DNA of 33,169 bases from a virus. Lineage: Duplodnaviria; Caudoviricetes. The stretch lies in IMG/VR virus record IMGVR_UViG_3300048579_000349, positions 1-33,169 of that record; one strand, 5' to 3'. Under the pieces are notes generated by a model. That model ran no database searches. It was not told the DNA's origin and saw only the letters and a list, made by a program, of their open reading frames with translations. A program made the translations under genes and the position numbers. How positions within the stretch are numbered: position 1 is the stretch's first letter; every line of letters starts with the position of its first letter. Of this stretch, positions 1-23,353 are shown one piece after another.

Positions 1-747
1 TTAATTTGGGTTAAAATATAATATATAAACTGTTACGCCGTTAATTGTAATAGGTACTGCTCTAAGCTGAGTTGTTGCCTGTCCGTTCTGCTCTGTGGCA
101 ACCCATAACCCTGTTTCAACAGTAGTGCCAAACGAGCTTACAAGATGACCCGTTAAATTATTCTCCATCATATTTTTAAAATTCCAGGTTCCGTAAGCTG
201 TATTTGTGTTTTCATAAGCGACAAGCAAAGTATCACTATTCGATTTAATAATAGAGCTGTGCAACGCCGCCGGGTTAAACGTAAGTAACGAATTATTCCC
301 GTTATCTTTGATAGTAAAATATGTAAATGAGTTATTGCCGGTAAATGCATTGCTTGTGCTAAGCCTTGGAACTCGGTTATATAATGTATCTTTTAATTGC
401 TTTATTGAATTTGAAAACACAGTGGAGGAGTCATCTAAATATGAAACGATGGTAGCAACATTATCAAATTCGTTTCGGAGAGAACTGATTACCAACCTAT
501 GAACGGTTAAAGAATCATTTGTTTTGGTTTCAACGCTCGTTATCCGGGTGTTAATATTATGAAGGTATAGATCAATATCTATTAAATTCCGGTTGACGGA
601 ATCTGCACCCGGTCTGTCGCCTTCTCCCCACATACGGAGTAAATAATAAGTTGTCCTGCCAATAGGCGGGTCATACTGAGAGCGTGCTAAGTCTACAAAC
701 AGCAGTATCAGTATTGTTAAAGCTAAAAATAATTTTTTTGTTAACAT
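1..747 (-). CDS. Tail-fibre-like protein with N-terminal Sec signal peptide
   Basis: Lies directly after the tape measure gene. Signal peptide MLTKKLFLALTILILLFVDLARS|Q, then TTYYLLRMW..GD....SVNRNLIDID (resembles a fibre N-terminal anchor), a coiled coil, and NAFTGNNSF / NTAYGTWNF fibre-like motifs. Confidence 0.55.
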   Translation of the reverse strand: MLTKKLFLALTILILLFVDLARSQYDPPIGRTTYYLLRMWGEGDRPGADSVNRNLIDIDLYLHNINTRITSVETKTNDSLTVHRLVISSLRNEFDNVATIVSYLDDSSTVFSNSIKQLKDTLYNRVPRLSTSNAFTGNNSFTYFTIKDNGNNSLLTFNPAALHSSIIKSNSDTLLVAYENTNTAYGTWNFKNMMENNLTGHLVSSFGTTVETGLWVATEQNGQATTQLRAVPITINGVTVYILYFNPN

Positions 748-748
748 A

Positions 749-3700
749 TTATTTTGATATTTGATTATCTAAAACTGTTTTACCTATTCTATGCAATGCT
801 TCTGAAAACGCAGGTACTAATTGTTCATCTATTGTTTTATCGAATTCAGCCGAATTAATATCAAGAGTCTGAATTGGTAAACTCATATTACTAAAATCAA
901 AATTTATTGTAATATTTCTTGAAGATGATGCTGCCGGTAAATCTGGCATCTGAACGGAAGGCAATGAAAAAGTTGTCTCAGTAGGTAAAAACTTACTTAA
1001 ATCATACCCCTGATTTGCAAGCCCTACTAATGCCCTGTTAAATGGATATTGAGCACCAAGAGAATTCATAACAGCTTCTCTGTGATGTACAAACCCCGCA
1101 AGTTCATCTTCTCTACCGTCACCGGTCCAGCTTGTACCTGTTGCAAATGCTCTTCCTGCTGATTCCGTACCGCCAAATAATCCACCTGAAAGAGTATTTA
1201 AAAGGAATTTGAACAACGATGTCGCAGCCAGTTCAATTAATGCGTTATATACTTCTTGAATAAATATTTGAAATAATGAATGTGCCTCTCCAAATACTTC
1301 GACCCATACGTTTTTAAATTCAGTTTTTATTGAATTAGCTGATGCACCAAAACCCGAGTTTATTAAATTCAATATATTTAGTTGTCCTTCGGTGTGCACT
1401 CTTTCTAATTCTTTAATGCGAGATAATTCGTTTTGGTGTAGTAATAAGGAACGTTGGTCGCCGTCTTTATATGTTTGTAAAATCCTTTCTTTCTCTTTGT
1501 TGTATTTATTGTTAATATTAAATATTTCAAGATTGTACGTCTCTTCCGAATTCTTCATCATAGCCGTTTTCAACTCGGTGTTAAGTTGGTCATCAAACTT
1601 CTTAGCACTTAATTTCAGTTCCTCTTCCTTTTTAATATCAAGCTGTTTGCGGAGCATTTCTTTTTCGGAAATTTCAATCGAAGCTTTATCAATTTTATCA
1701 TACATAGTACGATAAGCGATTTCGATTTCAGAAGTTTCTTTTGCTGCACCCTGTAAAGTTTTCTCGGTTCGTTTATCTATGAATTTATCTACATCATCTA
1801 CAAGTTTTTTCTGCTCTTCACCGGATTTCTTAATCTGCTCGAACTGCGATGTCATTAATTCGGAAATCTTTTCAGATACTTTGGTTTGATTGTCTTTGTT
1901 TTGCAGACCTTCTTGCACCAGGTTAAGTTCTTTAAGATAGGAGTCTACAATCTCATTCCTATCTGCAAGGGTAGCTTCACCACGCTTAATTTCGTCATCT
2001 TTTAATTTTAATAAATGTTCAAAATCAGCTATTAAATTTTTCAGCGATTCATTTTCTTCTTTGTACGGGTCCGTTGTCTTTTCGCTACCTGAACCTTTAG
2101 TTTTTCCAGAGGGTGACTCTCCTGTCTTTTTTTCTTCTTTGATTTGCCCGGGTATTGGATGGTCTAAAGTAGGACCGTAAACCGGAAGAATTTCAATACC
2201 TGATTTATCCTTTACGCTTTTACTAAATGCATCTTTTACCTGTTCAATTCCAAGTTTAAACTTATCAAGATTTTGGTCAAATTTAGCTTTGTTAAATATT
2301 AAATCATATACGTTTAAACCGCCAAGCCCGACGAGTGCATTATAAAGCCCGAACATAACCTGTGTTGCACGGGATACAACTTCAATCATAATAGTGATTC
2401 CGTTAACTGCACCGTCAACTAATATTTTTAGACTACTAAGTCCTTCACCTGCTTTATTCGTACTGCCAAGCCATTTATTATTCGATTCGACCGTATCGGA
2501 AATAGTTCTGATGATTCTTGACATTGCATCAATAACGGTTAGTATAATATCCTTAATGTATAAGAGACCATCCTTGCCCATTGTTTTGAGTATACTAAGC
2601 AAATTTTCCGACCCACCGAATAAATCCGTAAATGAGTTCCATACGTCAATAGCCTGTTCCTTTATATCCTCGAACGCAACTGATAATTCATTTGAAACAA
2701 CATCCCATAGATCTTTAAGCTCGTCCCATAATTCAGAAACAACCTCTTTGAATTCGTTAATAACATCTTCACCGCCAACTAATTCTGTTACAAAGCTTTC
2801 GATGGCTTCCATATTAGTAAGCACTTCATATAATACACCGATACCTGCCACTACTGCGCCTATGATAAGAGGGATGCCTGCAAGTTCAACGTCGAGAGCA
2901 ACAAGTACCGGAATCAATGCCGTTGCTGCAGCTGTAACAACTATCAGAGCACCCGCTGCGGCTTGAAGGTCTGGAGGTAATTTTTGGAATAAATCCGATA
3001 CCTGCTGAACAATTGCCAATGCTTCCCTAACTACAGGTGCAAAAGCTTTTCCGATAGTTTCCTTCATATCTTTAAAAGCGTTATCGGAAATTTTAATCTG
3101 ACCGGCAAGTGTTTTGCCAAAAGCTTCTGCGGTGATATTACTATTTTGGGTAAGGATTTGAGACAGAATGTTAATTCTGTCCATACCGGAAGCCGCTTCG
3201 AACATAGCTTTCTGAGTATCGGACATTATAACGCCTACACGCTGCATAGCAGCCACCATATCGGCTCCTGTAGCCTTACCAATCATTATGGCTGTCTGAG
3301 TCAGGCTCATACCAGTATCGCTGCCCTGAGCGAACGCAGAGGCAACGTCGAGCATTTTAGGAGTGAGTGCCTCTATCTGATCACCTGTAGCTCCGAACGT
3401 GGTCAGCATAGCCTGCATATTAGTTATGTCATCGTCATCAAAGGGCGTTATTTTATGAAGCTCTTCTGATTGCTGTAATAGCCTGCTAAAGTAATCTCCG
3501 GAACCGAGCCTATCAAGACCACCACGTAGTTTCTCAACTGATAATTCCGATGCAGCATATTCCTGCGTAGAATCCATCACGGATTCTTTTACAGACATAA
3601 ATGCCTGTTTCACTCCGTCAAGAGTTCCCTGTACAAGTTGAAACTTCATAAGCTTGCTTATGGAGTCGGTTCCCTTTTCACCAAGAGTATGGATTTCTTC

Positions 3701-3904
3701 TGATGTGCTTTTAGCGGTTTTGTCAATGGATTCAAGCGAGGTTTTCAACGCGGAAAAATCAAGCTTACCTGCATCGATACTCATTCCGGATTTTAAATCA
3801 TTAATGACAGAATTAGACATCGAGAGAGCCTGATTTAAATCAGCTTTAAACTTCTCAAGATCTACTGTTAATTCGAGCCGTGCTTTGCCGAATGTATCTG
3901 CCAT
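749..3904 (-). CDS. Tail tape measure protein
   Basis: 1051 aa, helical, with a hydrophobic central segment and W/F-spaced repeats. C-terminal FATGTSWTGDG...AGFVHHREAVMN motif; follows the chaperone pair. Confidence 0.92.
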   Translation of the reverse strand: MADTFGKARLELTVDLEKFKADLNQALSMSNSVINDLKSGMSIDAGKLDFSALKTSLESIDKTAKSTSEEIHTLGEKGTDSISKLMKFQLVQGTLDGVKQAFMSVKESVMDSTQEYAASELSVEKLRGGLDRLGSGDYFSRLLQQSEELHKITPFDDDDITNMQAMLTTFGATGDQIEALTPKMLDVASAFAQGSDTGMSLTQTAIMIGKATGADMVAAMQRVGVIMSDTQKAMFEAASGMDRINILSQILTQNSNITAEAFGKTLAGQIKISDNAFKDMKETIGKAFAPVVREALAIVQQVSDLFQKLPPDLQAAAGALIVVTAAATALIPVLVALDVELAGIPLIIGAVVAGIGVLYEVLTNMEAIESFVTELVGGEDVINEFKEVVSELWDELKDLWDVVSNELSVAFEDIKEQAIDVWNSFTDLFGGSENLLSILKTMGKDGLLYIKDIILTVIDAMSRIIRTISDTVESNNKWLGSTNKAGEGLSSLKILVDGAVNGITIMIEVVSRATQVMFGLYNALVGLGGLNVYDLIFNKAKFDQNLDKFKLGIEQVKDAFSKSVKDKSGIEILPVYGPTLDHPIPGQIKEEKKTGESPSGKTKGSGSEKTTDPYKEENESLKNLIADFEHLLKLKDDEIKRGEATLADRNEIVDSYLKELNLVQEGLQNKDNQTKVSEKISELMTSQFEQIKKSGEEQKKLVDDVDKFIDKRTEKTLQGAAKETSEIEIAYRTMYDKIDKASIEISEKEMLRKQLDIKKEEELKLSAKKFDDQLNTELKTAMMKNSEETYNLEIFNINNKYNKEKERILQTYKDGDQRSLLLHQNELSRIKELERVHTEGQLNILNLINSGFGASANSIKTEFKNVWVEVFGEAHSLFQIFIQEVYNALIELAATSLFKFLLNTLSGGLFGGTESAGRAFATGTSWTGDGREDELAGFVHHREAVMNSLGAQYPFNRALVGLANQGYDLSKFLPTETTFSLPSVQMPDLPAASSSRNITINFDFSNMSLPIQTLDINSAEFDKTIDEQLVPAFSEALHRIGKTVLDNQISK

Positions 3905-4653: not shown

Positions 4654-5394
4654 TTATAATTTAATTTTATAAGAAGTTTTTAAGTTAATTTGAAAGTTGT
4701 TTAAATCGAATTTACCGCCGAGAAAATTATACTGAATACCCGGCTCGATGCGTAAACGATTGAACGCTGTGATACCTGTTTCGATACCAGCGTTTACCCT
4801 TGGGGCTTTGATGCTGTCGAGGTTAAACGGAGAGTGCAGATTTATATAAGCTGAAATTCCATTTAGCTCGAAGTTATCGGTATTTACTAATACCGAGTTT
4901 GTATCTGATATTGCGGTGAAGCTGTTGCTAATTCCTGTAAAGTAATATTTCCTTACTACCTTCCTTTTTTGGTTTATTGTTGTGATGTTAAGTTCGTCCT
5001 TTGATTTATCGACCAATATCATTACATCTGTTTGTGGAAGTTTCTCTACAACTTCTTTCACAAATACAGAATCATAAGTTTTGTTATCGGTCGAGTCATA
5101 AGAGACTTCATAAACTACATCGGGATTGGAAGAGTGGCTGAATGCACTTCCGATTAACGAAGGCTGTTTTATTTTAATAAGTTTATCCCTATACTCGATT
5201 GTCGGTGCAGGGTAAGCCCCTGTTTGCTTATAAACTACAAGCGGTGTGCCCGTTGTATATTTACTTAATGATTCACCGAGCAATTCGAGTACTTTTTCAG
5301 GGTGGGACTTCGCAAGGAAGTACCCACCAATTAAAATCCCAACAAATATAATTACCGTTATTATTACCGGAGCATATTGTTTTATTTTATTCAT
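4654..5394 (-). CDS. Spanin-like membrane-anchored lysis protein
   Basis: Follows the endolysin. Single N-terminal TM helix, soluble middle region, and C-terminal amphipathic beta-strands. Confidence 0.5.
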   Translation of the reverse strand: MNKIKQYAPVIITVIIFVGILIGGYFLAKSHPEKVLELLGESLSKYTTGTPLVVYKQTGAYPAPTIEYRDKLIKIKQPSLIGSAFSHSSNPDVVYEVSYDSTDNKTYDSVFVKEVVEKLPQTDVMILVDKSKDELNITTINQKRKVVRKYYFTGISNSFTAISDTNSVLVNTDNFELNGISAYINLHSPFNLDSIKAPRVNAGIETGITAFNRLRIEPGIQYNFLGGKFDLNNFQINLKTSYKIKL

Positions 5395-5407: not shown

Positions 5408-5968
5408 TTATGCGTCCTGTTTTATCGGTACGTAACCGGGCAGATATGCAATCTTCAAAGCTTCGATGGTTACCGGTCCAACGATGCCGTCTGCTTTTAG
5501 CCCGTGCTCTTTCTGGAAATCTTTGACACCCTGGAATATTGCGCGTCTGAGCATTGATTGCTGAGCAACAGGAATAAACTGGATATGGCAGTCTTCCATA
5601 TTCAGGAGTGTTAAACCAAGACCTTTGGCGATATTGCGGATTGATTCATAATTGAGAGTGCTCCAGTCCCAGTTCCCTTTTTCGTTCTTGCCAACAAGGT
5701 CAACTGCTATTCCGAGATTATGCATACCATTGGTTTTGGTATTAGAGGCACCTGTATTGAACATATCCGCCTGACGTTTGTTACTACGGTATGTTTCGAA
5801 AAATTCAGGTGTGGAGCTATGCGAGCGCTTATATTCTGCAATCAAAGAATCTATCTTTGACTTGAATGTTGGTAACAGTAAGCTTGGGTCACTGCATCTT
5901 TTATCGGATAAGAAGTTTTCCGAAGTACAGATTTTTGATAAATAATTTTGGACTATTTCTGGATACAT
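5408..5968 (-). CDS. Endolysin, M15-type peptidase with C-terminal peptidoglycan-binding domain
   Basis: ETYRS..RQ, HNLGIAVD and DCHIQ motifs; FQKEHGLKADGIVGPVT is typical of PG_binding_1. Confidence 0.9.
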   Translation of the reverse strand: MYPEIVQNYLSKICTSENFLSDKRCSDPSLLLPTFKSKIDSLIAEYKRSHSSTPEFFETYRSNKRQADMFNTGASNTKTNGMHNLGIAVDLVGKNEKGNWDWSTLNYESIRNIAKGLGLTLLNMEDCHIQFIPVAQQSMLRRAIFQGVKDFQKEHGLKADGIVGPVTIEALKIAYLPGYVPIKQDA

Positions 5969-5995
5969 AATTGATTCCTTTTTTTAAAAATTTAC

Positions 5996-6020
5996 CTCTC
6001 GCTGCGTTCGGCAGCGAGAG
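5996..6020. terminator. GC-rich hairpin between holin and endolysin (weak terminator or mRNA stabiliser)
   Basis: Perfect 10-bp stem CTCTCGCTGC / GCAGCGAGAG with a 5-nt loop; no strong adjacent U-tract. Confidence 0.5.
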
Positions 6021-6039
6021 TATATAATTTTGATTTGCT

Positions 6040-6399
6040 TTAATTTGTTGCAGGTGCTCTTGGCTGAATTGCGCTTTTGTTAGGGTCCTGAATCACAAAG
6101 CTAAATGCGAATATTGCAATCGGCTGCAGGAAAGGTAATATTGCCGTCCAACCAATCTCAGGATAAAATTTACTGAGGATGACTTGTAACAGGTATATTC
6201 CCTTTTCGATTATAAGTGCAATCATTGCACTTACACTTTTGATTTGATTCGGGTCTGCAAAAATCGCAACGACTGTTATGCCGATAGTTGTTACCGTAGC
6301 AACAAGGTCTGCACTGATGCTTGGTACCCATAAGCTAAGAATGGCGAAGAACATACCAACCAAGGCTGTGATGAATCCTGCTATTGTCGTTTTTTGCAT
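6040..6399 (-). CDS. Putative holin (multi-TM)
   Basis: 119 aa with about four hydrophobic segments, immediately upstream of the endolysin. Confidence 0.7.
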   Translation of the reverse strand: MQKTTIAGFITALVGMFFAILSLWVPSISADLVATVTTIGITVVAIFADPNQIKSVSAMIALIIEKGIYLLQVILSKFYPEIGWTAILPFLQPIAIFAFSFVIQDPNKSAIQPRAPATN

Positions 6400-6761: not shown

Positions 6762-7316
6762 TTAGAGTCGCTTATATGTCAGGTCAGAGCTTAGATACCT
6801 TTTCATTGTATATGTATTTTCTTCTCTGTAGGCATTTTTAGTTTCCATAGTCATCGGGAATTTTAATCCGGTTAATTCCGCCTCCGTAAAAATTATCCCG
6901 GGTTTTTCAAAGTCACCGCAGTAAGAATCTTTATTTATATTCAATTCGAGATTCTGTCCTATGGTAGTATTACCTAAAATAATCTGAGAGTAAACGCTAT
7001 CCCTCGAAGCACTTCTGAATATTTTTTTAGTTTTTTCAGTAAAGTATAAATTCTTTTTCGGGGGAATTCTTACATAACTCGTTGTAAGTTTTGCGCCTGT
7101 ATCATTGCTAAAATATACGTTTAGATAAACCGAGTCTGATTCGTTCGTAATCATACCCGTTCTATCCACTCCGGATAGACCTGGCACGGTGAACGTATCG
7201 ACTGCGGTCTTTACGTACTTAGCAGAGGTGTATGGCTGTGCCGGCACAGACTTAGGCTGAAAGGCAAAACCAATCAGCAGTATCAGTACCAGCGCAAATA
7301 CATTTCTGAATTTCAT
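6762..7316 (-). CDS. Signal-peptide-bearing beta-rich protein, paralog of 9498..10232
   Basis: MKFRNVFALVLILLIGFAF...VPA|Q signal peptide, AGGAG RBS, and shared PY..xK(Y/W)VKT..DT and RDS(V/I) motifs. Confidence 0.75.
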   Translation of the reverse strand: MKFRNVFALVLILLIGFAFQPKSVPAQPYTSAKYVKTAVDTFTVPGLSGVDRTGMITNESDSVYLNVYFSNDTGAKLTTSYVRIPPKKNLYFTEKTKKIFRSASRDSVYSQIILGNTTIGQNLELNINKDSYCGDFEKPGIIFTEAELTGLKFPMTMETKNAYREENTYTMKRYLSSDLTYKRL

Positions 7317-7370: not shown

Positions 7371-8015
7371 TTATTTTGTCTTGCTTTCTTTTACTTTTGT
7401 TTCACTTTCGAGCATTGAGGCAACCTTAGCAGCTTCAGTGTTTGGCGCATCACCGGGAGGCACTTCATATTCACCTGTAATCATTTCCTTTACAATCGTT
7501 CCGACGTTGTTATCGTTTGCCGGGTCTGCAAGTGCCGTGAAAGAAAACTTGAATGTGTTTTCTTTTTCTCTTTGGAACGTAAGTTTCAATCCGCCGGAAG
7601 ATTGGATTCTGTAAAATGTAAAGATGATAAATTTTGAATCGTCCCTGATTCGGGGGATTTTGTACGTAAGCTTAAATTCAGGAGGCGCCATAAGTGTACC
7701 GCCAATTGTGTAAGTCCATTTATGGTTTTGAGTATCTTCTACTATATCATCCGGGTCACCTCCGAGTGCAAGCACCATATTTCTAACGGAAGACTCCAGT
7801 AACTCTATTTCTCCCTTGCATTCATTTTTTATTATCATTTGTTCAATCGGGTATGTTGCCTGATCGCATTCAATTGATAATATTTTTGAACTGATGTCAA
7901 TCGAAGCATTTCTGCTGGCTCCGACTGCAGTGCCGTCACCTGCTGTGCCTACGGTTTGCAGATACATATCTCCACCGCCCATTTCGATGTTCTTTTTTTC
8001 TATTGTTGAAGACAT
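7371..8015 (-). CDS. Major tail tube protein (siphovirus type)
   Basis: 214 aa, with N-terminal NIEMGGGDMY and C-terminal LTFQREKENTFKFSFTAL strand pattern; followed by a hairpin; no sheath gene present. Confidence 0.8.
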   Translation of the reverse strand: MSSTIEKKNIEMGGGDMYLQTVGTAGDGTAVGASRNASIDISSKILSIECDQATYPIEQMIIKNECKGEIELLESSVRNMVLALGGDPDDIVEDTQNHKWTYTIGGTLMAPPEFKLTYKIPRIRDDSKFIIFTFYRIQSSGGLKLTFQREKENTFKFSFTALADPANDNNVGTIVKEMITGEYEVPPGDAPNTEAAKVASMLESETKVKESKTK

Positions 8016-8050: not shown

Positions 8051-9493
8051 TTATCTTCTTATTGCGTTAAAAATTATACTTGCTAAAATCCTATTGCCGA
8101 GTTCTGTTAAATGCAGATTGTCATAAAAGTAATGAGTGTTTGAATATGAACCAGTAGCTCCGATATATTCATTTAAATCTACTCTGATAATACCCGTTGC
8201 AAATCTGTTGTAGTTAGCTATTAGGGAATCGTTATATGCCTGACGGTGAGTGCCTTCGTTGTTCCACGAAGTACAGGTGCAAACCCACACTTCCCATCCT
8301 TGCGCTCTTGCACTGTCGCACAGGATTTTCATAAGCCTGTATGCCGAGTCTGCAGATGCGCCTGCATTCATACTACAGATGCCTTCCATTGGGATATAAA
8401 TATTATTCCGGTACTTCGAATCATATAATGGGCGTACATTTGTTGTGAAGTTTTGAATCTGTGTCTCGGTTAACCGTGAACCTACGCCTTTATTATAAAC
8501 TATGTACCCCTGAAGGAGTGAATCTATTTTATGCGGGTAACTTAAATTATATCCGAGCAGGCACTGCGTAATTGAGTTGCCGTCACATACAATCTGTCCT
8601 GATGTTATGTTGTGCTTTAAGCTGTCAACCGCCTGATTAAGCAGTCTCCAATCTTTACCGTTGAATGCCCTGCTAAGTCCGCTTAGAAAATATCTGCGAC
8701 CTGCGAATGTCGAGGCAGTGCCTCCATTATTTACACAGCCTAAATAGACTTCGTAATTTGGGAGAGAGCTTGCAAATGTCACGTTTGAACTTGTCACATA
8801 TATTCCGTTTTTATAAAGCCAATTTTTTCCGCCGTACGCAGAGAATCCGTAGAAACCTCTTGAATCAGAATTAGTAGTATTCACATAGCTTGCGGTTGTG
8901 TTCACATTGTAATACATATTCCCGTTGCTGAAACGGATAATAGGATTAAAGTAATATGAGCCGGCTTGCACACCTGCATCAAATCCGCCAGGATTATTTG
9001 TGTCGCTGTATATGCACATACTTGCAAATGTTCTTTGAAACTTTACCGGGTCTGTTGATAAATTATATTTAAGATTTATATATTTATTAGATGCCGGAAT
9101 CAATCCTTTATACTTAATAAGCGAGGAACCTATGCCGCCAGCTAGTAACGCATTTTTATATCCCTTCAGGTCAACTACCGAACTTGCAGTGTCGTAGTTA
9201 CCATATAAAGTTATTTGGTCAAAAGCATCCCACAGGGTTGTATCGGTTATTTGTGTTGAATCATAAATAGCAGAGCAAAAATTATTTTTAAGAAAATAAA
9301 TAAACGAGTTAATTGCATATTTTGAAACCGAAGGATAATCTGCAGGTAGCTTACTAAAATATATCAATGCCTCGGGTTCGAATACAAAACTTGAAGTAAC
9401 ATTTTTGTAACCGGATTCATATCCTTTATAACCTTGAGCATTTGCTTTTATAAAGGAAAGGAAAATTAATATTATTAAAAATCTTTTGTTCAA
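8051..9493 (-). CDS. Signal-peptide protein with lectin-like middle region and C-terminal SGNH/GDSL hydrolase
   Basis: Probable TTG start at 9493 after GGGAGA. Signal peptide ...IKANA|Q; SGNH blocks DGNSIT, NKGVGS and DNLH. Confidence 0.75.
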   Translation of the reverse strand: MNKRFLIILIFLSFIKANAQGYKGYESGYKNVTSSFVFEPEALIYFSKLPADYPSVSKYAINSFIYFLKNNFCSAIYDSTQITDTTLWDAFDQITLYGNYDTASSVVDLKGYKNALLAGGIGSSLIKYKGLIPASNKYINLKYNLSTDPVKFQRTFASMCIYSDTNNPGGFDAGVQAGSYYFNPIIRFSNGNMYYNVNTTASYVNTTNSDSRGFYGFSAYGGKNWLYKNGIYVTSSNVTFASSLPNYEVYLGCVNNGGTASTFAGRRYFLSGLSRAFNGKDWRLLNQAVDSLKHNITSGQIVCDGNSITQCLLGYNLSYPHKIDSLLQGYIVYNKGVGSRLTETQIQNFTTNVRPLYDSKYRNNIYIPMEGICSMNAGASADSAYRLMKILCDSARAQGWEVWVCTCTSWNNEGTHRQAYNDSLIANYNRFATGIIRVDLNEYIGATGSYSNTHYFYDNLHLTELGNRILASIIFNAIRR

Positions 9494-9497
9494 AAAA

Positions 9498-10232
9498 CTA
9501 TCTCCCATTAATAGATAAATAAAAACGGACAAGCCCGCCGTATTGACTTCTTATGTACATATTACTGAACGCTCCCGCATCCCACCAGTCGAGTGCCGAA
9601 TATGGGGTTTTCGCTGGAATGGTTATTATATTATGGATGTGACTGAAATCCTGTTCGGGACTAATTTGTAAAGCAGAATCTGAGATGATGCTAAACTTAA
9701 ATGCCGCACCAATATTTACCTCGCTCCAGGACCCTATACTTAAGCTATTGAGTACGTTATATGCGTAACTACTACAGGTATCATTCACTTCAAGGTTAGC
9801 GGTTATTAAAGGAGGGTAAATATTAAAAGCAGCATTCACAATGAACGAGGTGTCAGCGCCAAAGCTTTTATTTATTTTCATTCCGTGCAGATCAATATCG
9901 CCTATATAGTATTTCACAAGAATGCTATCACGGTTTGCTTTTAATATAAATTTTGTACCTTCATAATTAATCGAGAAGTTATTCACTGCAGAGAAAAATT
10001 CAGTATTAAAAGTAGTGTCACGCTTTTGAGTTTTAATAAAAATGGTATCCTGTGAATTGCTGGCAAACTCTACTGTCAGCTTCACGTCGAATGCGTACCT
10101 GCTCAGGCGGATTGTATCGGCTGTGGTCTTGACCCACTTGCTGGCAACGTATGGATTTGGCTGCGAATGCAAGACCCCGATAGTAGCCAATAAGATTATA
10201 ACGCTGAGTAATATTGATTTTGTGCATTTCAT
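9498..10232 (-). CDS. Signal-peptide-bearing beta-rich protein, paralog of 6762..7316
   Basis: MKCTKSILLSVIILLATIGVLHS|Q signal peptide; N-terminal motif shared with 6762..7316. Confidence 0.75.
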   Translation of the reverse strand: MKCTKSILLSVIILLATIGVLHSQPNPYVASKWVKTTADTIRLSRYAFDVKLTVEFASNSQDTIFIKTQKRDTTFNTEFFSAVNNFSINYEGTKFILKANRDSILVKYYIGDIDLHGMKINKSFGADTSFIVNAAFNIYPPLITANLEVNDTCSSYAYNVLNSLSIGSWSEVNIGAAFKFSIISDSALQISPEQDFSHIHNIITIPAKTPYSALDWWDAGAFSNMYIRSQYGGLVRFYLSINGR

Positions 10233-12758: not shown

Positions 12759-13925
12759 TTATTGCCCACCTAACAGGAAACCACAGTTGAGATTTTTCTT
12801 TACTTCTGCTTTTGACTTAGGCTCTTCTTTTTCTATTTCCTGCTGGCTGCCGGGTGATTTCTTTTCGAGCTCAGTAATTTTATCGTTCAGACCTTTAATC
12901 ACCTCATCTTTTTCTTTGGTGATTTTGTCGACTGCAGCGGTAACTGCATCATCGACCTGTTTCTTGATTTCTTCTGGTGTCATTTCAGTATCCTTATTTT
13001 GATTTTTTGATTTTGCGGTTTCGGCAGCGGCAAGTACTGCGTTCATATTATCTATTGCCGCCTGTATCTTTTTAAGATTTGCTTCCGATAAAACTTTTCC
13101 GGCTTTGCTTACTTTAATTTCACCGGTCTTTTCGTCGGTAACTTCTTTAATGATTTGCTTTGCGATTGTAATCGTATCAATTTTTGATTTGAACTGATCT
13201 ATATTAGTAAGTATCTGTGCTTTCTTGTCGGTTACTGTGGCATCGTTAAGAGCCTGGCGGATGGAATCGGACAGTGTCCATACATAGTCCTGAATTTCCT
13301 GTGTCCCCGCAAGTGAATTGAAATCCTTTATAATTTGAATTTCGTTGACGGGTTCTGTTGCTGATTTGTTATCCATATTATTTTCGAAAAATTTTGTAAA
13401 TGCGGTTAGAAATTTTTTAACTAAATTTTTTTCGGTATCGGCTTCTTCGATGCGTTCCGCAGTTCCATACATACTGAACCCGGTAAGCTCACCGCTCACC
13501 ACTTTATTCCAAACCTCTTCATTGTTTACCTTAACTGCGTATGCCCACGCACCGACCTCTTCAGGGAATAACGGGTCGCCTGATTTCACAATCCATGTTT
13601 CACACATAAAGACATCGCCAAGCGGTTTATTGTCGTGCTGCACGTCCGTCTTGTTTGAAGTCGTAAGCGACTTCATAAATAGTTCCTGCGCTTTTTCGAT
13701 TTCGGCGGCTGTCATAAAGTCACCGTGTGCATCCACCTGGTCGGGGGAATATACTATGCCATATACTTTCTTTTTAACTTCATCTGTCTTTGCAAATGTA
13801 AATCTGCGGATTTCATTTAAAGCGGATTCACCCTTTTCGGATTTCCATATAATAGTTTTTTTGTTGGCTCCTTTGTCAACAAGACTGACGAGTTCTACTT
13901 TTAAATTTCTTAATTCGCTTGACAT
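12759..13925 (-). CDS. XkdF-like prohead serine protease fused to a scaffold region
   Basis: VSLVDKGAN, VYGIVYSPDQVDAHGD, DVQH and GELTGFSMYG motifs; charged coiled-coil C-terminus. Confidence 0.88.
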   Translation of the reverse strand: MSSELRNLKVELVSLVDKGANKKTIIWKSEKGESALNEIRRFTFAKTDEVKKKVYGIVYSPDQVDAHGDFMTAAEIEKAQELFMKSLTTSNKTDVQHDNKPLGDVFMCETWIVKSGDPLFPEEVGAWAYAVKVNNEEVWNKVVSGELTGFSMYGTAERIEEADTEKNLVKKFLTAFTKFFENNMDNKSATEPVNEIQIIKDFNSLAGTQEIQDYVWTLSDSIRQALNDATVTDKKAQILTNIDQFKSKIDTITIAKQIIKEVTDEKTGEIKVSKAGKVLSEANLKKIQAAIDNMNAVLAAAETAKSKNQNKDTEMTPEEIKKQVDDAVTAAVDKITKEKDEVIKGLNDKITELEKKSPGSQQEIEKEEPKSKAEVKKNLNCGFLLGGQ

Positions 13926-14683: not shown

Positions 14684-15220
14684 TTAAAATCTAAGACCAA
14701 AATATAAACTTGCTTTTTCTATTTCGCTGCTGCCAAAACCAATTGTAAACTTATTTTCAGGAGCTATAATTAACAGCTTGCCATATACATACCCTTTTGT
14801 TTTATTTTGCTCCCATGTATACTTAACGGAAGAACCCGATAAATCATATATAGTATATTTCGAATGCCAAGTTAAAAAATAGCCTCCTTCAATTGCGAGA
14901 CCTGTATTTGAAATCAATCTTATGCCTGCACCAAGACCATACGGTCCTCTTTCTTCAACTCCTTTTATCGGTAGTTCATAAGATAATTGATTTATCTCTC
15001 CGTCTGCTTTTGGTTTTTTAATGCCATTATAATCCATAATTCCGGTAAACGTTATTCCTGCACCGGCAATAAAGTTAGAGGGATTGTAATATTGAGAAGT
15101 GATACTTGCACTTACACTTTGCATACCTACAGACAAACCGGATTCAAAAAATATTTTCTTAGTCTGCGCGGAGCAGGTAACCGAGATGACTATTAATAGA
15201 ACTGTGAATAAATATTTCAT
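14684..15220 (-). CDS. Putative outer-membrane beta-barrel protein (moron)
   Basis: GGAGG RBS before the ATG at 15220; signal peptide ...TCSA|Q; amphipathic strands; terminal LYFGLRF; has its own promoter. Confidence 0.7.
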   Translation of the reverse strand: MKYLFTVLLIVISVTCSAQTKKIFFESGLSVGMQSVSASITSQYYNPSNFIAGAGITFTGIMDYNGIKKPKADGEINQLSYELPIKGVEERGPYGLGAGIRLISNTGLAIEGGYFLTWHSKYTIYDLSGSSVKYTWEQNKTKGYVYGKLLIIAPENKFTIGFGSSEIEKASLYFGLRF

Positions 15221-15244
15221 TTTAACCTCCATTAAAATTTTCCG

Positions 15245-15275
15245 CAAAATTATAAATTCCCTTATATATAGTCAA
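15245..15275 (-). promoter_or_regulatory. Promoter for the beta-barrel gene
   Basis: TTGACT-N17-TAATTTTG, overlapping the repressor stop codon. Confidence 0.7.
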
Positions 15276-15942: not shown

Positions 15943-16278
15943 ATGAGCAGTTACAAAGCAGAATTAAAACGTAGAAAAATTTCATACCGCAAGATTGCCA
16001 CTGATTTATCATTAAGTGCTGCAACTGTTAACTTGGTTTTGGATAATAAATACACTGGTTCTAAAGACACAGAAGATAGAATCATAAAACATATTGAGTA
16101 TCTTATCCAAGACAAAGAAGATATGAATCTTATAATATATAATAATATTGATACGATGCTAAAGGCTACGCATATGCTTATTAAGAATCCCAAGCTTAAT
16201 AATGTAGAGACAAGATACTTTATCAAGTTAAACGAAATACTGAACACCTACAAGGAGAATCAAATTGCCAAAATCTAA
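15943..16278 (+). CDS. Ner/Cro-like HTH regulator
   Basis: ISYRKIATDLSLSAATVNLVL HTH; first early gene. Confidence 0.75.
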   Translation: MSSYKAELKRRKISYRKIATDLSLSAATVNLVLDNKYTGSKDTEDRIIKHIEYLIQDKEDMNLIIYNNIDTMLKATHMLIKNPKLNNVETRYFIKLNEILNTYKENQIAKI

Positions 16279-16483
16279 AATCACATTATTAATTAAACAA
16301 TCCGGTCTTACACGCAAACGCATTTGTGAAGATGTTGGCATCAGTATGATTTATTTGTCACTGATAGAAAATGATGAACGCAAAGCAGTCAAAAAACGTG
16401 AACAGCTTATTGACTATCTCGAATACGAAATTCAATCGCGCAAGACCAAGAAGAGAATTTTCAAAAATAAAAAAGCAGCATAA
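16265..16483 (+). CDS. XRE-family HTH protein
   Basis: GLTRKRICEDVGISMIYLSLIEND; TTG start. Confidence 0.7.
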   Translation: MPKSKITLLIKQSGLTRKRICEDVGISMIYLSLIENDERKAVKKREQLIDYLEYEIQSRKTKKRIFKNKKAA

Positions 16484-16484
16484 T

Positions 16485-16676
16485 ATGTCAGACCCAAAAC
16501 CAATTGAAGTAAAAAGAACCGAATACAAGAACAAGATAAAAATTCAGATTGAACTATTGAAAGCAAATTTAGCGCAGTTCGATAAAGATAATAAAAAAAC
16601 CGATTGGAGTGTAATCGGTAGTCTGTGTTTTGTCCACGATGCACTTCAGGAACTTAATAAACTTTTTTCAAAATAA
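16485..16676 (+). CDS. Hypothetical protein (63 aa)
   Basis: ATG one base after the upstream stop codon. Confidence 0.6.
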   Translation: MSDPKPIEVKRTEYKNKIKIQIELLKANLAQFDKDNKKTDWSVIGSLCFVHDALQELNKLFSK

Positions 16677-16688
16677 TAAATTAATTTT

Positions 16689-16868
16689 ATGGGCGTACTA
16701 AATAATTTAGACCCGGACAGGCAATTAAAAAGGATTAAAAAACAGAAAGAGCACGACAAGAAAAAGTGTATAGAATCTAAAAAGGTTCTATCGAGAAGTG
16801 CTGATTATAATGGTCAGTACCTTCGCACTAAAGCATTCAGAAGATTAAACGCTGCAATCTGCCTATGA
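16689..16868 (+). CDS. Small basic hypothetical protein (59 aa, below the track cutoff)
   Basis: MGVLNNLDPDRQLK...NAAICL; ATGA overlap with the transposase start. Confidence 0.6.
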   Translation: MGVLNNLDPDRQLKRIKKQKEHDKKKCIESKKVLSRSADYNGQYLRTKAFRRLNAAICL

Positions 16869-18871
16869 AAAATTCTACATCTTATAAAATTACAGAGATG
16901 AATATGCAGAATACACAACACGTATCTTCTGAGAGTAGCGTTTCCGAAAATAAACCACTCGATAAAATAATTTTAAATGAAGATGTAATCAACCTGCAAG
17001 CCTGCCTACAATACATTATTGATAATCAGGTCAAAGGTATTAATGATGTTTTGAAGGTTGCGGCAAATTATAAGGTGCAGCTTGGCTATGCCTCTATAAT
17101 GAATAAACTGAAAGCATTCAAATCACACGGACCGGCTAAACTCCTGCGTAAAGAAAAATCCGATAAAGGCGAAATAAAAAGTTTCTCGTCTGAGGTTCAG
17201 AGAAAACTACAGGCAATATACACATCACCGCTCGGCGGCTGTGCATTAACAGCTTACAACGATACTCACACCTGGCTGCGTTCTATTTCAAGAGAGTTTA
17301 TTTCGATTAAAACCGGAGAGTGTTTTAAAATATCGAATGGCTGTTTGTATGATATTCAGAACTCGAAGATTATATCTGCTCAGTCTGCAAGGTACGAGCC
17401 GGGTATATATAAAATTGCAGTTGATAAATTAAACGATACTGATGTAGAACTTCAAATCGGTTCGCTCTCCAGTGCAACAAGATTTTTACGCTCGGTGAAG
17501 AAAAATAATTCCGATGCACTCTATTATAATAAATTCGGCTTGTATGATTTCAGGAATAAAAGACAGCACGCAATGAAACTGAATTACTCTCACCTTCAGC
17601 CGAACGAATTATGGTGCGGTGATGGCAAGATGCTTGACCTGCTTGTTATAAGTGATGACTGGAAAAAAGTATATAGACCCTGGCTTATGGACTGGTACGA
17701 TATGGCGACCCGCAGATACTGTTATGAAATAGCTGAAACGGAAAACTCAGAATCAATTGCAAACTCTCTTGCGGTGGCAATAACAAATTGGGGAATCCCA
17801 AAATCAGTTAAGCACGATAACGGCACTTCATATCTTTCAGGCAGATTCGATGCAATGAAAACATCCTTCGGAATAAAGACTCACCATAAGAAAGTAAAAC
17901 TTGCAAGAGCCAACCCTGTGGAATCAATGCATAATATAGTTGATAATATGTGCAAGCCTCTGCCCGGGTACACCGGTAATAAATATCAGGAGTTCCCTGA
18001 AGACACGCGTAACAAATTAAAATTCACACTCGGCGTTCACAGGGATTTAAAGAAGATTGAAAAACTCTTTAAAGACAAAAAGGCAACTGATACATATTAT
18101 GAAAATATTTCCAATCCGGAATCTCGTATGAAGGCAAACAAAAACAGGCTGCTTCATATCTCGGAACTCCGGAAGATACTCGACGAGAAGATGAATGAAT
18201 ATCACAACAGAACTCAGCGCGGACTTGCCGGAGATAAGCTTGGCGAAAAAGTTTACAACAGACTTTGCACAGACGAACTTATAAATGAAATGGGTGAAAA
18301 CCTGAATACACCTGCAGGCAGATATGAATATAAATTAAAAATGGGATTCGTCCCGGTAATGGCTGACCCGTCTGCTGTTTCGATTTATGCAATGAACTTC
18401 GAGCTCCGCACTATCCAGCTTAAACGCGGCATCACACTAAACAATAATGAATTCTATCACGCGGCAATGAGGAACTACGGCGGCGAGCGGGTCCTGATTA
18501 GATACACCAATCCGAACTCTGATATATTATATGTATTTCATAGTGAAGAGTTGCAGAAAATTTCCGATAAGAAATATATGACCACTGAACTTTTCAAAGA
18601 TTTAAAGTTTATATGCATAGCCGAAAAACAAAAACTTATAGATTGGGGCGATAAGGAATCATTCACCGAGCAACTTACTATTCAGAAAAATGAAGAACGC
18701 AGACTGCGTGAAACGTTCAGGGAAGAAAAGAAAACCAATATACATACGCTTACCGGAATCGAAGGACAAATTCCCGAAATACATCAAGCAGAAGAAAATT
18801 ATCAGGAAAGACAAATGAATAAAATTAACCCTATTAAAAAACTTAAATTCAAAGGACCGTTCGATGAGTAA
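16865..18871 (+). CDS. MuA-like DDE transposase
   Basis: WCGDG, HDNG and ANPVES catalytic motifs; C-terminal GITLNNNEFY...VLIRY; MuB-like gene downstream. Confidence 0.92.
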   Translation: MKNSTSYKITEMNMQNTQHVSSESSVSENKPLDKIILNEDVINLQACLQYIIDNQVKGINDVLKVAANYKVQLGYASIMNKLKAFKSHGPAKLLRKEKSDKGEIKSFSSEVQRKLQAIYTSPLGGCALTAYNDTHTWLRSISREFISIKTGECFKISNGCLYDIQNSKIISAQSARYEPGIYKIAVDKLNDTDVELQIGSLSSATRFLRSVKKNNSDALYYNKFGLYDFRNKRQHAMKLNYSHLQPNELWCGDGKMLDLLVISDDWKKVYRPWLMDWYDMATRRYCYEIAETENSESIANSLAVAITNWGIPKSVKHDNGTSYLSGRFDAMKTSFGIKTHHKKVKLARANPVESMHNIVDNMCKPLPGYTGNKYQEFPEDTRNKLKFTLGVHRDLKKIEKLFKDKKATDTYYENISNPESRMKANKNRLLHISELRKILDEKMNEYHNRTQRGLAGDKLGEKVYNRLCTDELINEMGENLNTPAGRYEYKLKMGFVPVMADPSAVSIYAMNFELRTIQLKRGITLNNNEFYHAAMRNYGGERVLIRYTNPNSDILYVFHSEELQKISDKKYMTTELFKDLKFICIAEKQKLIDWGDKESFTEQLTIQKNEERRLRETFREEKKTNIHTLTGIEGQIPEIHQAEENYQERQMNKINPIKKLKFKGPFDE

Positions 18872-19103
18872 AAAATCAATAGTCAAAAACAGTTACCTCG
18901 TCAACGTTGCCGGACGTGTTTTTAAAGGTGCTTACAAATTAATTGTAAAACATTTTTATACCTTTAGACACAGAGACTACGGAGAGGTTACCGGACAGCT
19001 TACAATGTGGGACTTCGCTTCAGGTCATATGGAGGCTATGACCGAAAACGGAGACTTCCTTCCAATGAATATAAAATTTGTGGAGGAAATATATGCACAA
19101 TAA
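18864..19103 (+). CDS. Hypothetical protein between transposase and ATPase
   Basis: 79 aa ORF overlapping both neighbours. Confidence 0.6.
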   Translation: MSKKSIVKNSYLVNVAGRVFKGAYKLIVKHFYTFRHRDYGEVTGQLTMWDFASGHMEAMTENGDFLPMNIKFVEEIYAQ

Positions 19104-20016
19104 TAATACATATTCGCCGGAAGAAATTGCTGAGATATTAAGAGAGTACATTTATCGTTTAAAGTTTTCCCAAAGCCTGCTTGCACAAAAAATCGGTATA
19201 AGCACATCCTCTTTATCTCAGGTGATGGACGGTAAATATAAGTATGACCCAACTAACTCGGTGTGGATTCAGATTAAAAATTTTGTCGATAAAATCGACT
19301 GCACTATTTACAAGACAAAGGTCTATGTAGTAACTCACAGAATTTTATCGGAGACCTTTGAAAAGAAAAAAATATCAGTAATCACATCAGGCAGCGGTGC
19401 AGGCAAGACCACTTCAATTGAGCAGTACTGCCTTGTAAACCCCTTCGCAATATTTATAAGGGTAAATGAATTTTTCACAAACAAATATCTTCTTGAAATA
19501 ATGATGCGTTCGGTTGGCAAAGAACCTTACGGATTGAATATGTCTCAGATGTTCGAGGCACTTTCAAATTATTTCGTGCATAATCAGAAGCTATTTATTT
19601 TTGATGAAGCCGAAAGATTAAAGGTTAGCCAGCTGGAAGCTCTGCGCGACTTCTACGATCAAGGCAATATCGGTTTATCCCTTGTCGGACTGAATGACTT
19701 GCGGAATCTTTTAAAGCGCGGACGTAACCTCAGAGAAAATCTCGTACAGCTTTATTCGAGAGTAGCTTATCAGGATGTTGTTGACTTCCTCGAACCGGCT
19801 GATATAAAAATGTTATTCAAAGATAAATTGCCCGGTAATAAAGTATCAAATGAAATGCTTAAGCACCTTGCCAAAAAGTACGAAAAGCAGGGAGGCTTCC
19901 GCTCTATGCTTAACCTGGCGGAAATAGTTTTGAAGGTACTCGATAATAACAAAGATAAAAAAGTGGAAATCGACGACGACCTGATTTCCGATTCTGAAAA
20001 ATATTTATTTGTATAA
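19093..20016 (+). CDS. MuB-like AAA+ transposition ATPase with N-terminal HTH
   Basis: GGAGGA RBS; SQSLLAQKIGISTSSLSQ HTH; Walker A GSGAGKT; Walker B FIFDEA; QLYSRV. Confidence 0.92.
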   Translation: MHNNNTYSPEEIAEILREYIYRLKFSQSLLAQKIGISTSSLSQVMDGKYKYDPTNSVWIQIKNFVDKIDCTIYKTKVYVVTHRILSETFEKKKISVITSGSGAGKTTSIEQYCLVNPFAIFIRVNEFFTNKYLLEIMMRSVGKEPYGLNMSQMFEALSNYFVHNQKLFIFDEAERLKVSQLEALRDFYDQGNIGLSLVGLNDLRNLLKRGRNLRENLVQLYSRVAYQDVVDFLEPADIKMLFKDKLPGNKVSNEMLKHLAKKYEKQGGFRSMLNLAEIVLKVLDNNKDKKVEIDDDLISDSEKYLFV

Positions 20017-20018
20017 CT

Positions 20019-20354
20019 ATGAACCTATTCACAACATCATTTCAGACGGCTGTATCCTTAAAGAAAATCGGTTTCCCGCAGGAATCAATTTTCTATCACC
20101 ACAATAAAACTAAAGATGTAGTGCATTCAAAGGATATGCCGGTATATAAAGACTGGAATAAGCATTACACTGCAGCACACATTGGTGCAGACTTTGATAA
20201 ATATTTGCCTGCAGGTACTGCTATCAGGCTGACTAAATTCGGAACATGGTATGCGGAATCCGGTAAACTTGTTTCACGTTCCTCTGTGAATCTTATCGAT
20301 GCAAAGGCAGACCTTGTTCAAAAACTTTTTGCAAATAAATTAATACAATTTTGA
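20019..20354 (+). CDS. Hypothetical protein
   Basis: Tightly packed in the early operon. Confidence 0.65.
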   Translation: MNLFTTSFQTAVSLKKIGFPQESIFYHHNKTKDVVHSKDMPVYKDWNKHYTAAHIGADFDKYLPAGTAIRLTKFGTWYAESGKLVSRSSVNLIDAKADLVQKLFANKLIQF

Positions 20355-20355
20355 T

Positions 20356-20574
20356 ATGAGTAAATATATAACAATAACATTCGAAGTTGACAACGATTTT
20401 ACAAAAATGACAAATATTAATTATTCGCCGGCGAACCTGAAGGCAGAAACTATAAAAGGAATTCTTCAAGCCGGAGCAGAAGCTATTGAATTAGAACTTG
20501 AAAAATACGGAGACGGAATAGACTTATGCAATCAAGCTCAAAGTATCTTAGAATGTAATTCCAAAAACCCTTAA
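20356..20574 (+). CDS. Hypothetical protein
   Basis: Tightly packed in the early operon. Confidence 0.6.
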   Translation: MSKYITITFEVDNDFTKMTNINYSPANLKAETIKGILQAGAEAIELELEKYGDGIDLCNQAQSILECNSKNP

Positions 20575-20585
20575 ATAATAAAATT

Positions 20586-21122
20586 ATGAATAATGATTTA
20601 TTTCTTAGAAAGCCTCCGCTCGATAAAATAACCGAATCGGAGGAGAAACTATTTCAGGATAAGCTCACTCCTGATACCTCATTTCTTAACTTCCTTATGT
20701 TCGACGGCAACTGTCCAATTGAGAACTGGAAGAAGGAAGAGCAGGCACTCCAAGAAGTCAGCGAGTTAAAAAACCGCAAGAAGGAAATTGAAAGTTTCCA
20801 AGCTGAATGGATAAAATATATTGTTGATATTACCTCCGAAGCCTGTAATAAAATCGATGCTAAAATTGATTTAATAAATTCAAAGATTCAGAAATACGCC
20901 CGTGATAACTCCGACGACGTGAAGCTTGAAAAACAAGACGGTGTGGAAAAAGGGGAAATCGTACTCGGAAATTTCAGAATCGAAGTTGTTAAAAAGATTT
21001 CGATTAAAAAGGCAGTAGCCGGCAAACCGATTAAAGAAGATAACTCAGATAACGAAATATTATTTGAGGACTCCGTCCCGGCTGAAAACTTCGAGCGGGT
21101 GCCGGGCACACAGCAGGTTTAA
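20586..21122 (+). CDS. Mu Gam-like coiled-coil protein (tentative)
   Basis: Long coiled coil ending IQKYARDN followed by short strands GEIVLGNFRI; typical position after MuB. Confidence 0.45.
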   Translation: MNNDLFLRKPPLDKITESEEKLFQDKLTPDTSFLNFLMFDGNCPIENWKKEEQALQEVSELKNRKKEIESFQAEWIKYIVDITSEACNKIDAKIDLINSKIQKYARDNSDDVKLEKQDGVEKGEIVLGNFRIEVVKKISIKKAVAGKPIKEDNSDNEILFEDSVPAENFERVPGTQQV

Positions 21123-21153
21123 AATCATTTTATAAATCAATTAAATAATTAAT

Positions 21154-21777
21154 ATGGCAACAGAAAATGCAAACAAAGAGTGGATGAACAGTAACGGGAA
21201 TTTTATTCCCAAAAAAAACATCCCAAAAATTTATCGCGAGCGCGATAAAGTAGTAATGAAAATTACCAAGCGTATGGAAAAACTTGAAAGGCAAATGAAA
21301 GCCGTTAAGGCTGCCAACTTCAAAGATGTGGATGCATACCTTGCTAAGCTTGCTAAAACAAACGGTGTACAGAAAGATATAAAGGGTAACATCACGCTGT
21401 CGAGTTACGATAATCTGTATCGCGTTGAATTAAATAGAAATGAAATCGAAGGGTTCGACGAACAGCTTAATGTTGCAAAACAGCTTATCGACGAGTGTAT
21501 TATTAAATGGTCGAAAGGCTCTGATAAGAATCTCATTCCGGTTATTACGGAAGCTTTCAAGCTCGATAACAACAAGAGATTCAATACAAATGCAATATGG
21601 AATCTGACTAAGCTGAACATTAAAGACCCGACGTGGAAAAAAGCTGTAGACCTTATAACAAACTCACGTCAGAAGGTAGGCTCCAAACAGTATATGCAGG
21701 TAGCTTCAAGGAAAAGTCATAAATCTTTATTCAAGAGTATTAATATGAATTTTTCCTCAATGGATTTACCGGAATAA
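21154..21777 (+). CDS. DUF3164-family Mu-like phage protein
   Basis: WMNSNGNFIP, RDKVV, KGNITLSSYD, AKQLIDECIIKW and WKKAVDLI motifs. Confidence 0.85.
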   Translation: MATENANKEWMNSNGNFIPKKNIPKIYRERDKVVMKITKRMEKLERQMKAVKAANFKDVDAYLAKLAKTNGVQKDIKGNITLSSYDNLYRVELNRNEIEGFDEQLNVAKQLIDECIIKWSKGSDKNLIPVITEAFKLDNNKRFNTNAIWNLTKLNIKDPTWKKAVDLITNSRQKVGSKQYMQVASRKSHKSLFKSINMNFSSMDLPE

Positions 21778-21808
21778 TTTATTTTTTCTTAATCTAAATT
21801 TTTTCATT

Positions 21809-22652: not shown

Positions 22653-22661
22653 TTAATCATT

Positions 22662-23165: not shown

Positions 23166-23175
23166 ATATTACTCA

Positions 23176-23352: not shown

Positions 23353-23353
23353 T

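Follow-up and report, generated by a model that had tools for sequence, protein, structure and literature searches.

A Mu-like prophage encodes a leader-bearing, tail-fibre-like protein that is likely exported

The open reading frame at 1..747 on the minus strand of the window (the whole stretch of DNA analysed, an entire virus record of 33,169 bases, both ends of which are stop codons) likely encodes an exported tail fibre, since it bears a leader, its relatives carry fibre and tailspike C-termini, and its product was modelled as a trimer. The particles of tailed phages are generally regarded as assembled entirely within the cytoplasm, and their fibres are usually leaderless, whereas the leader was found in 139 of the best 150 clusters of this family, and a tail fibre with an unusual, periplasmic maturation route is the likely reading. 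The parts of the protein are as follows.

1..747, minus strand: leader-bearing tail-fibre-like protein of 248 aa, predicted trimer, with an ATG start and its stop codon at bases 1-3
679..747, minus strand: predicted Sec/SPase I leader, residues 1-23, cleavage between ARS and Q, of the Bacteroidetes Q-rule type
565..678, minus strand: conserved N-terminal module (N-module), residues 24-61, putative anchor, with a near-invariant glycosylation motif, D49-S50-V51
373..564, minus strand: residues 62-125, predicted to form a three-stranded coiled coil and containing the motifs D78-S-L and D120-T-L
148..372, minus strand: neck motif at residues 126-141, which is BppL_N-like in homologs, then an intertwined shaft reaching roughly residue 200; this part includes D172-T-L
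4..147, minus strand: C-terminal tip, residues 201-248, ending in a conserved ..ITINGxT.. strand pair; it would be the distal, receptor-facing end

An earlier note on this DNA had claimed a signal peptide and a place directly after the tape measure, and both claims hold: a hydrophobic leader is visible at the sequence level and kept in nearly all relatives, and one base separates the TAA of the tape-measure ORF (749..3904) from the fibre ATG. The leader starts with MLTKK, continues into a hydrophobic core (Kyte-Doolittle 12-residue mean 3.24) and ends in ARS before Q24, thus showing the basic n-region, hydrophobic h-region, small residues at -3 and -1 and Q at +1 of the Sec/SPase I Q-rule pattern; this assignment was made from hydrophobicity, overall shape and conservation. 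The fibre sequence shows neither a lipoprotein cysteine at +1 nor a membrane anchor behind the leader. Within the first 100 codons, translation could start in frame at M1, M39 or TTG85, and no Shine-Dalgarno sequence is visible upstream of M1. The note had warned that a downstream start would remove the leader. A start at M39 was rejected, because this residue varies among homologs (L, Y, K, E, Q or R in alignment A5) and lies inside the conserved module, which would be split in two.

When the first 47 residues of the fibre were used as query in a word-index search, 51 homologs were returned. The leader was complete in 48 of the 51 and represented by its end only in the other three, one of which (P0010) has a full leader readable in the DNA of relative L002. 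A small residue and Q stand immediately before the module in 50/51 homologs, and the leader was read in frame at 13/13 DNA loci checked; these three counts argue that the leader is not due to chance. The N-module profile was then searched against 1.84 billion representatives and gave 235 clusters at E <=0.001, the best 150 of which comprised 139 leadered proteins, 6 with the leader end only, 4 leaderless ones and 1 repeat-type false match, which was removed. The six leader-end homologs keep A-Q, five being apparent late start calls and one falling just below the leader threshold. Leaderless homologs, for which the note had advised a check, therefore exist (4 among the best 150 of 235 clusters). 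Single-protein locus scans and a metagenome scan with alignment A1 found nothing. Thirteen pattern matches gave five homologs (L004, L009 which equals L001, L011, L012, and L014 which equals L002); the other 8/13 were unrelated and dropped, and L019 was a false match. The tblastn matches to annotated phages (best E 0.01 or worse) were also rejected, since three owed their score to the neck repeat alone and another lay inside a tape measure.

Among the best 150 of 235 clusters, the proteins with the N-module, false match excluded, ranged from 85 to 1321 aa in length. Of the 127 new representatives, 40, chosen mainly among the long ones, were scanned against Pfam and 8 against PHROG. The results showed the N-module joined to a tail collar fibre C-terminus in P0071 (E 3.5e-30), to C-terminal tail-fibre segments in P0151 and P0178, to a tailspike/beta-helix C-terminus in P0155, and to sialate esterase domains in P0149 and P0168, and 33/40 representatives had no Pfam match. 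PHROG gave weak matches only and no fibre family for 10 members of alignment A2, and the 248-aa window fibre matched nothing in Pfam or PHROG. A conserved N-module with exchangeable C-termini is the modularity of fibres, and it is better evidence for a fibre than the match to BppL described below. Trimeric autotransporter adhesins of the Eib/YadA type have a C-terminal membrane-anchor domain, and a trimeric autotransporter was rejected, since no Pfam match to such an anchor was found in the 51 homologs and 40 further ones, and the C-termini of some homologs are domains of collar fibres or spikes.

The trimer model proposed in the note was made with residues 24-248. It scored 0.84 against 0.01 for the best control, with a pLDDT of 94, and this pass may reflect likeness to solved fibres and concerns the three copies that were modelled. 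Contact agreement between runs was at least 97%. The score mark, calibrated on two copies, was reached by 20/30 solved pairs and 1/23 single chains. The AlphaFold2 monomer had a pLDDT of 38.7. In the trimer model, contacts follow heptads with a hydrophobic core over residues 62-122, which agrees with the coiled coil claimed earlier, and are then almost continuous over residues 126-247, so a homotrimer with N-terminal anchor, shaft and distal tip is predicted. The fibre-type N-terminal motif quoted in the note corresponds to residues 31-59, and the preceding QYDPPIG belongs to the conserved module; its shaft-like motifs NAFTGNNSF and NTAYGTWNF are residues 133-141 and 182-190. The fibre-like character that it had claimed is likewise supported, by the trimer model, by the BppL_N neck motif in homologs and by fibre and spike C-termini on the shared N-module.

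BppL is a trimer that docks on BppU. Matches to BppL_N (PF18338) were found in 9/51 homologs, three of them (P0012, P0013, P0019) above the Pfam cut-off of 25.8 bits, and the window fibre itself had no match at that cut-off. NAFTGNNSF aligns with the neck motif behind the BppL_N matches in homologs, and this motif recurs in Streptomyces and Helicobacter phage fibres. With profile A3, the only PDB matches were TP901-1 BppL and its chimeras (6 sequences, E 0.13-0.15). BppL scored 15.1 bits against the family profile, compared with a maximum of 6.6 over 2000 shuffles, and hhalign gave a probability of 11% for the direct fibre-to-BppL comparison. The N-module alone matched nothing meaningful in the PDB and was not significant against BppL. 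The best ESM Atlas hits (0.87 and 0.84) were T4_gp9_10_N and BppL_N clusters, which are leads below 0.9. TP901-1 BppL (PDB 2F0C, 3U6X, 4V96) resembles the window fibre in being a short siphophage fibre with an N-terminal helix and the neck motif V-x-x-x-G-x-E-x-I-x-G-x-K-x-F, and in its collinear weak match to the family profile. However, BppL is leaderless and reads GAETIN where the window-fibre family reads GADSVN, and the window fibre has a 60-residue coiled coil, another tip and a sequence of its own without a BppL_N match.

Pfam and PHROG matches showed that the window element is a Mu-like prophage, with a DDE transposase A and an AAA ATPase B plus head and tail genes, and transposase homologs were present in 4/4 related records. 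From the Mu-type A and B genes, we read the element as a transposable prophage. The plus strand carries transposase A and B, terminase, portal and MuF, and the minus-strand operon runs in the order protease, capsid, neck, tube, lysis and tape measure, with the fibre ORF as its final gene within the window. This layout is common to three IMG/VR records (G001-G003). The genes that the text refers to are listed here.

16865..20016, plus strand: Mu-type transposase A and ATPase B (phrog_310 E 3e-51, phrog_296 E 6e-44)
749..3904, minus strand: tape-measure protein, leaderless (phrog_28 E 1.2e-13), stop one base before the fibre start
4654..5394, minus strand: operon protein with an N-terminal hydrophobic segment, 3 glycosylation motifs against 0.7 expected
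5408..5968, minus strand: endolysin (PG_binding_1 E 2.5e-7; phrog_2649 E 4e-13)
6040..6399, minus strand: small hydrophobic protein adjoining the endolysin, holin candidate by eye, without a family match
6762..7316, minus strand: leader + Q protein of the head-tail operon, conserved with relatives
7371..8015, minus strand: tail tube-like protein, leaderless (phrog_2175 E 5e-10, phrog_885 E 0.009)
8051..9532, minus strand: leader + Q protein with a weak C-terminal SGNH/GDSL match, 8 motifs against 1.2 expected
9498..10232, minus strand: leader + Q protein of the head-tail operon, 5 motifs against 0.9 expected

The arrangement is divergent. On the 12759-13925(-) side, the genes for protease, capsid and tail start next to the repressor and are read leftward, and the rightward early arm, 15943-32877(+), terminates in terminase, portal and MuF, as it does in all of G001-G003. 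The window genes 22662-23165(+), 23713-25506(+) and 29780-30559(+) encode a stand-alone DNA polymerase beta palm/thumb fragment, a C5 methylase and a Dam-type methylase, the last of these as an insert between terminase and portal. In G001 (L032 2591-4392), two tail-tube paralogs of 390 and 182 aa stand in tandem.

The fibre gene directly follows the tape measure in the Mu-like relatives L002, L011 and L020, and in L001 an amidase-like gene lies between the two. Past the fibre, L001 and L011 encode leaderless proteins of ~800 aa (38% identical between the two records) and ~160 aa (37% identical). The ~800-aa protein is the probable hub, judged by size and place only. The 158-aa protein of L011 gave a low-confidence model (pLDDT 51.7), and its leading Foldseek matches were chains of tail tube, tail tip, baseplate or Hcp proteins, the best with an E of 2.5e-3 and none reaching 0.001; because a separate tube gene lies upstream, we read this model as Dit-type. 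No tail family was matched in Pfam or PHROG by the hub and Dit candidates of L001 and L011. The slot held by the fibre had been described earlier as that of the distal tail protein (Dit). The fibre does come after the tape measure, but a Dit-type gene still follows in L001 and L011, and this part of the description could not be kept. Replacement of Dit was rejected, since the fibre models as a fibre and a probable hub gene and a tube/Dit-fold gene follow it in these two relatives; a Dit protein would have a tail-tube-like fold and no leader, which is not what was found for the window fibre. It had also been advised to inspect the genes left of the window for a hub, a Dit and more fibres. Read in the relatives, a probable hub and a Dit-type gene are there in L001 and L011, and the further fibres are not: the tail modules of four relatives showed no second fibre candidate, those of L001 and L011 extending beyond the Dit-type gene and those of L002 and L020 breaking off at the fibre or shortly behind it.

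Seven other records (L012, L018, L021, L023, L024, L027, L028) have the homolog at the ordinary place of a fibre, after a tape-measure-like gene and two to three leaderless tail-tip genes. Location in a tail module was thus found in the window, four Mu-like relatives and seven other records. The exceptions are L022, where a 111-aa homolog lies beside portal and MuF outside the tail module, and L025, where the module is podovirus-like by eye. A small leadered gene (78-89 aa), possibly a chaperone or spanin-like part, comes after the fibre at L011 10660-10896 and L020 10813-11082.

In eight loci, a leaderless gene close to the fibre terminates in a peptide of the form G-Y-G-x-x-[YW]-G, at most 10 residues from the stop. 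At a ninth (L012 810-860), GYGxxYG lies one base off frame after a nine-T run at the end of a 431-aa gene, through an assembly error or a programmed frameshift. The peptide is present in 10/11 informative records, absent from the complete record G056, and absent from the window, G002 and G003, which break off at the fibre or shortly behind it; 255,234 bases of control sequence contained no copy. In the record of L022, the peptide stands at the end of a leaderless gene of 282 aa, which is followed by leadered genes. The 282-aa leaderless gene at L043 694-1542, baseplate-wedge-like by eye, ends in GYGxxYG and is flanked by motif-bearing genes, leadered downstream, and the peptide may serve contractile tails too. 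In the L011 model, GYGxxYG falls within the low-confidence C-terminal tail. Its co-occurrence with the fibre suggests that the C-terminal GYGxxYG is a candidate docking site for the N-module.

As described in the main text of PMC12871550, Bacteroidota O-glycosylate a motif of D-S/T followed by a hydrophobic residue, only in non-cytoplasmic proteins, and in B. fragilis E in place of D is not tolerated (PMC12871550). The window fibre has 4 D-S/T-[AVILMT] motifs against 1.2 expected (p 0.025); expectations came from shuffles that keep composition. Six proteins of the window begin with a hydrophobic segment, and together these have 22 motifs against 4.9 expected (4.5-fold), compared with 21 against 18.8 in the 22 leaderless proteins, and four control motifs, including E-S/T, N-S/T and the reversed motif, were flat in the six. 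The motif of the module was present in 138/139 leadered and 0/4 leaderless homologs (best 150 of 235 clusters), a count favoured by a profile built from leadered proteins with an invariant D-S, and Fisher's p of 3e-7 overstates the case, as the four leaderless proteins may be one lineage. These read DQL, AGL, AAI and DAL at the motif position. In the rest of the chains, the leadered proteins had 599 motifs against 234 expected (2.6x) and the leaderless ones 20 against 15.8 (1.3x), counted over the best 150 of the 235 clusters. The motif of Bacteroidota O-glycoproteins is thus in excess in the fibre, the family and the operon, although the D-S in the module may alternatively be a helix cap.

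Other leadered genes stand in the same operon. The products of 6762-7316(-) and 9498-10232(-), which may have a head-decoration fold, share a mature start of the form Q-P-x(2-4)-S-[AK]-K-[YW]-V-K-T-[AT]-x-D-T, a possible shared attachment motif. In the slot between tail terminator and tube, each relative has a different leadered protein (the SGNH-like 8051-9532(-) in the window, L002 2171-2824, L032 1458-2426, L020 1859-2365), like an exchangeable exported accessory. The leader + Q protein 14684-15247(-), beside the repressor, has no glycosylation motif, ends in F, looks like an outer-membrane barrel by eye and is 46% identical to the gene at the same place in G001. It is likely a true lysogen gene and an internal contrast to the fibre.

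The only named genome with a homolog was a 1.0-Mb MAG titled Gammaproteobacteria. A homolog was found in 0/50 further genomes of that MAG's phylum, and the MAG homolog is suspected to lie on a misplaced contig. In the genome contigs searched, no transposase relative was found, and terminase and capsid matches were at most 30% identical. The window contains no host DNA, and indirect signs may point to a Bacteroidota-type host. The fibre protein is also on record on a contig of 1.18 Mb. Two DNA sequencing runs containing a small share of the record covered scattered pieces of it and did not extend to the left of base 1, and no RNA run was listed as containing it.

Starting from what is seen in the sequence (leader, Q at +1, modular N-terminus, motif excess and tail-gene context) and from the predicted trimer with its anchor, coiled coil, shaft and tip, we consider it probable that the protein is a trimeric Mu-like tail fibre that is exported by Sec, cut at Q24, O-glycosylated, and docked at lysis. 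The fibre would be transcribed late together with the tail genes, and the conserved leader would send it through the host Sec system into the periplasm. There it would be cleaved at Q24, receive an N-terminal pyroglutamate, be O-glycosylated by the Bacteroidota-type host, and trimerise. When holin and endolysin (5408-6399) open the envelope, the fibre would dock on the finished tail tip and so become part of the virion, with the N-module binding the flexible C-terminal GYGxxYG peptide of a Dit-type protein made in the cytoplasm. Such a route would give access to the periplasmic host glycan and capping enzymes, and its benefit is likely stability or masking. The products of 6762-7316, 8051-9532 and 9498-10232 would share this export route as outer virion parts.

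The leader could instead direct the protein away from the site of tail assembly for good, if a former fibre now served the lysogen outside the virion as a decoy, adhesin or superinfection block. Porphyromonas prophage Q-rule proteins are read as envelope modifiers in the main text of PMC10367356, and the L022 homolog is short (111 aa) and lies outside the tail module. Nevertheless, we find this unlikely, as the fibre gene abuts the tape-measure stop within the late operon, the tail modules of L001, L011, L002 and L020 offer no other fibre candidate, seven other records place the homolog where a fibre is expected, neither a +1 lipoprotein cysteine nor an anchor behind the leader was seen, and the module is common to leaderless tail fibres and spikes.

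The two remaining explanations keep the fibre in the cytoplasm. The leader might be an inner-membrane anchor, uncleaved or cleaved late, that tethers fibre and tail tip on the cytoplasmic side, so that the fibre never becomes periplasmic. Assembly would then stay cytoplasmic, and hydrophobicity alone gives no topology. However, the small residue and Q in 50/51 homologs fit SPase I, whose active site faces the periplasm, and the excess of periplasmic glycosylation motifs tracks the leader, which makes such a tether improbable. Slightly less probable still is an ordinary cytoplasmic fibre from which the leader is removed by a start at M39 or by a phage protease, with the D-S/T motifs reflecting composition or helix capping. 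M39 is in frame, no Shine-Dalgarno sequence is visible before M1, and cutting of major capsid leaders by a prohead protease is suggested in the main text of PMC10367356. Against this, M39 is not conserved and would halve the module, the leader is kept in 139 of the best 150 divergent clusters, the shuffles keep composition while E-S/T, N-S/T and reversed motifs are flat, and leaderless homologs keep the module and lose the motif.

Beyond this single fibre, we tentatively suggest, at somewhat less than an even chance, that phages of Bacteroidota-type hosts build their virions in two compartments. Head, tube and tail tip would form in the cytoplasm, and fibres and other outer parts would be Sec-exported, capped and coated with host O-glycan in the periplasm before docking at lysis. 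The docking pair would be the 40-residue glycosylated N-module and GYGxxYG on a Dit or baseplate protein, and the module would have switched between cytoplasmic and exported forms, with leader and glycosylation site gained together.

If true, a periplasm-matured fibre needs a late docking step at lysis, and the virion would bear a host-made, species-specific glycan, a mark of its previous host with possible effects on stability, adsorption or recognition. The family makes the export idea directly testable, being a small protein with a fixed predicted cleavage site and a near-invariant glycosylation site, to which come natural homologs without the leader as controls and a short peptide as putative docking site. 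For annotation, leadered prophage genes in Bacteroidota-type hosts should not be taken as envelope morons by default.

Filamentous phage coat proteins use Sec leaders, and inoviruses are tailless and assemble in the membrane, while glycosylated mycobacteriophage virions depend on the phages' own cytoplasmic glycosyltransferases. In neither case is a tail component known to pass through the periplasm. The Q-rule, which concerns substrates of signal peptidase I, is reported for Bacteroidetes and is also high in Ignavibacterium album (PMC5837995). The Bacteroidota system of Q-rule and D-S/T motif shares with the window the leader, the Q at +1 and an excess of motifs that is restricted to proteins with a leader, but concerns host proteins, and the word 'phage' is absent from the main texts of PMC5837995 and PMC12871550. 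In prophages of Porphyromonas gingivalis, Matrishin et al. 2023 noted Q-rule proteins of unknown function and interpreted them as modifiers of the envelope (PMC10367356). These prophage genes likewise have a signal peptide and Q, but 'tail fiber' and 'glycosyl' are absent from the main text of that paper. The accessible text of two 2026 preprints deals with sortase and outer-membrane genes and prophage induction, not with fibres. No description of exported tail fibres was found in the literature searched, which did not extend to supplements and most subscription papers.

The nearest evidence for leadered proteins in tailed virions comes from Cellulophaga phage phi18:3 (KC821620), where 3/12 of the structural proteins annotated from MS/MS in bases 24,000-71,443 have a leader and Q. 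These proteins, gp085-gp087, come from a phage of Bacteroidota and, like the window fibre, carry a hydrophobic leader followed by Q; they are structural by MS/MS annotation. They differ in belonging to another phage family, in not being homologous to the N-module and in being poor in motifs (3 against 9.8 expected), and the record is silent on leaders. Thus gp085-087 support export of virion parts, not their glycosylation; because these proteins are neither motif-rich nor homologous, glycosylation of leadered virion proteins is not general. To these systems the present prophage adds a transposable temperate phage, a defined family of anchor modules in which naturally leaderless forms can serve as controls, a trimer model of high confidence and a peptide that is a candidate for docking.
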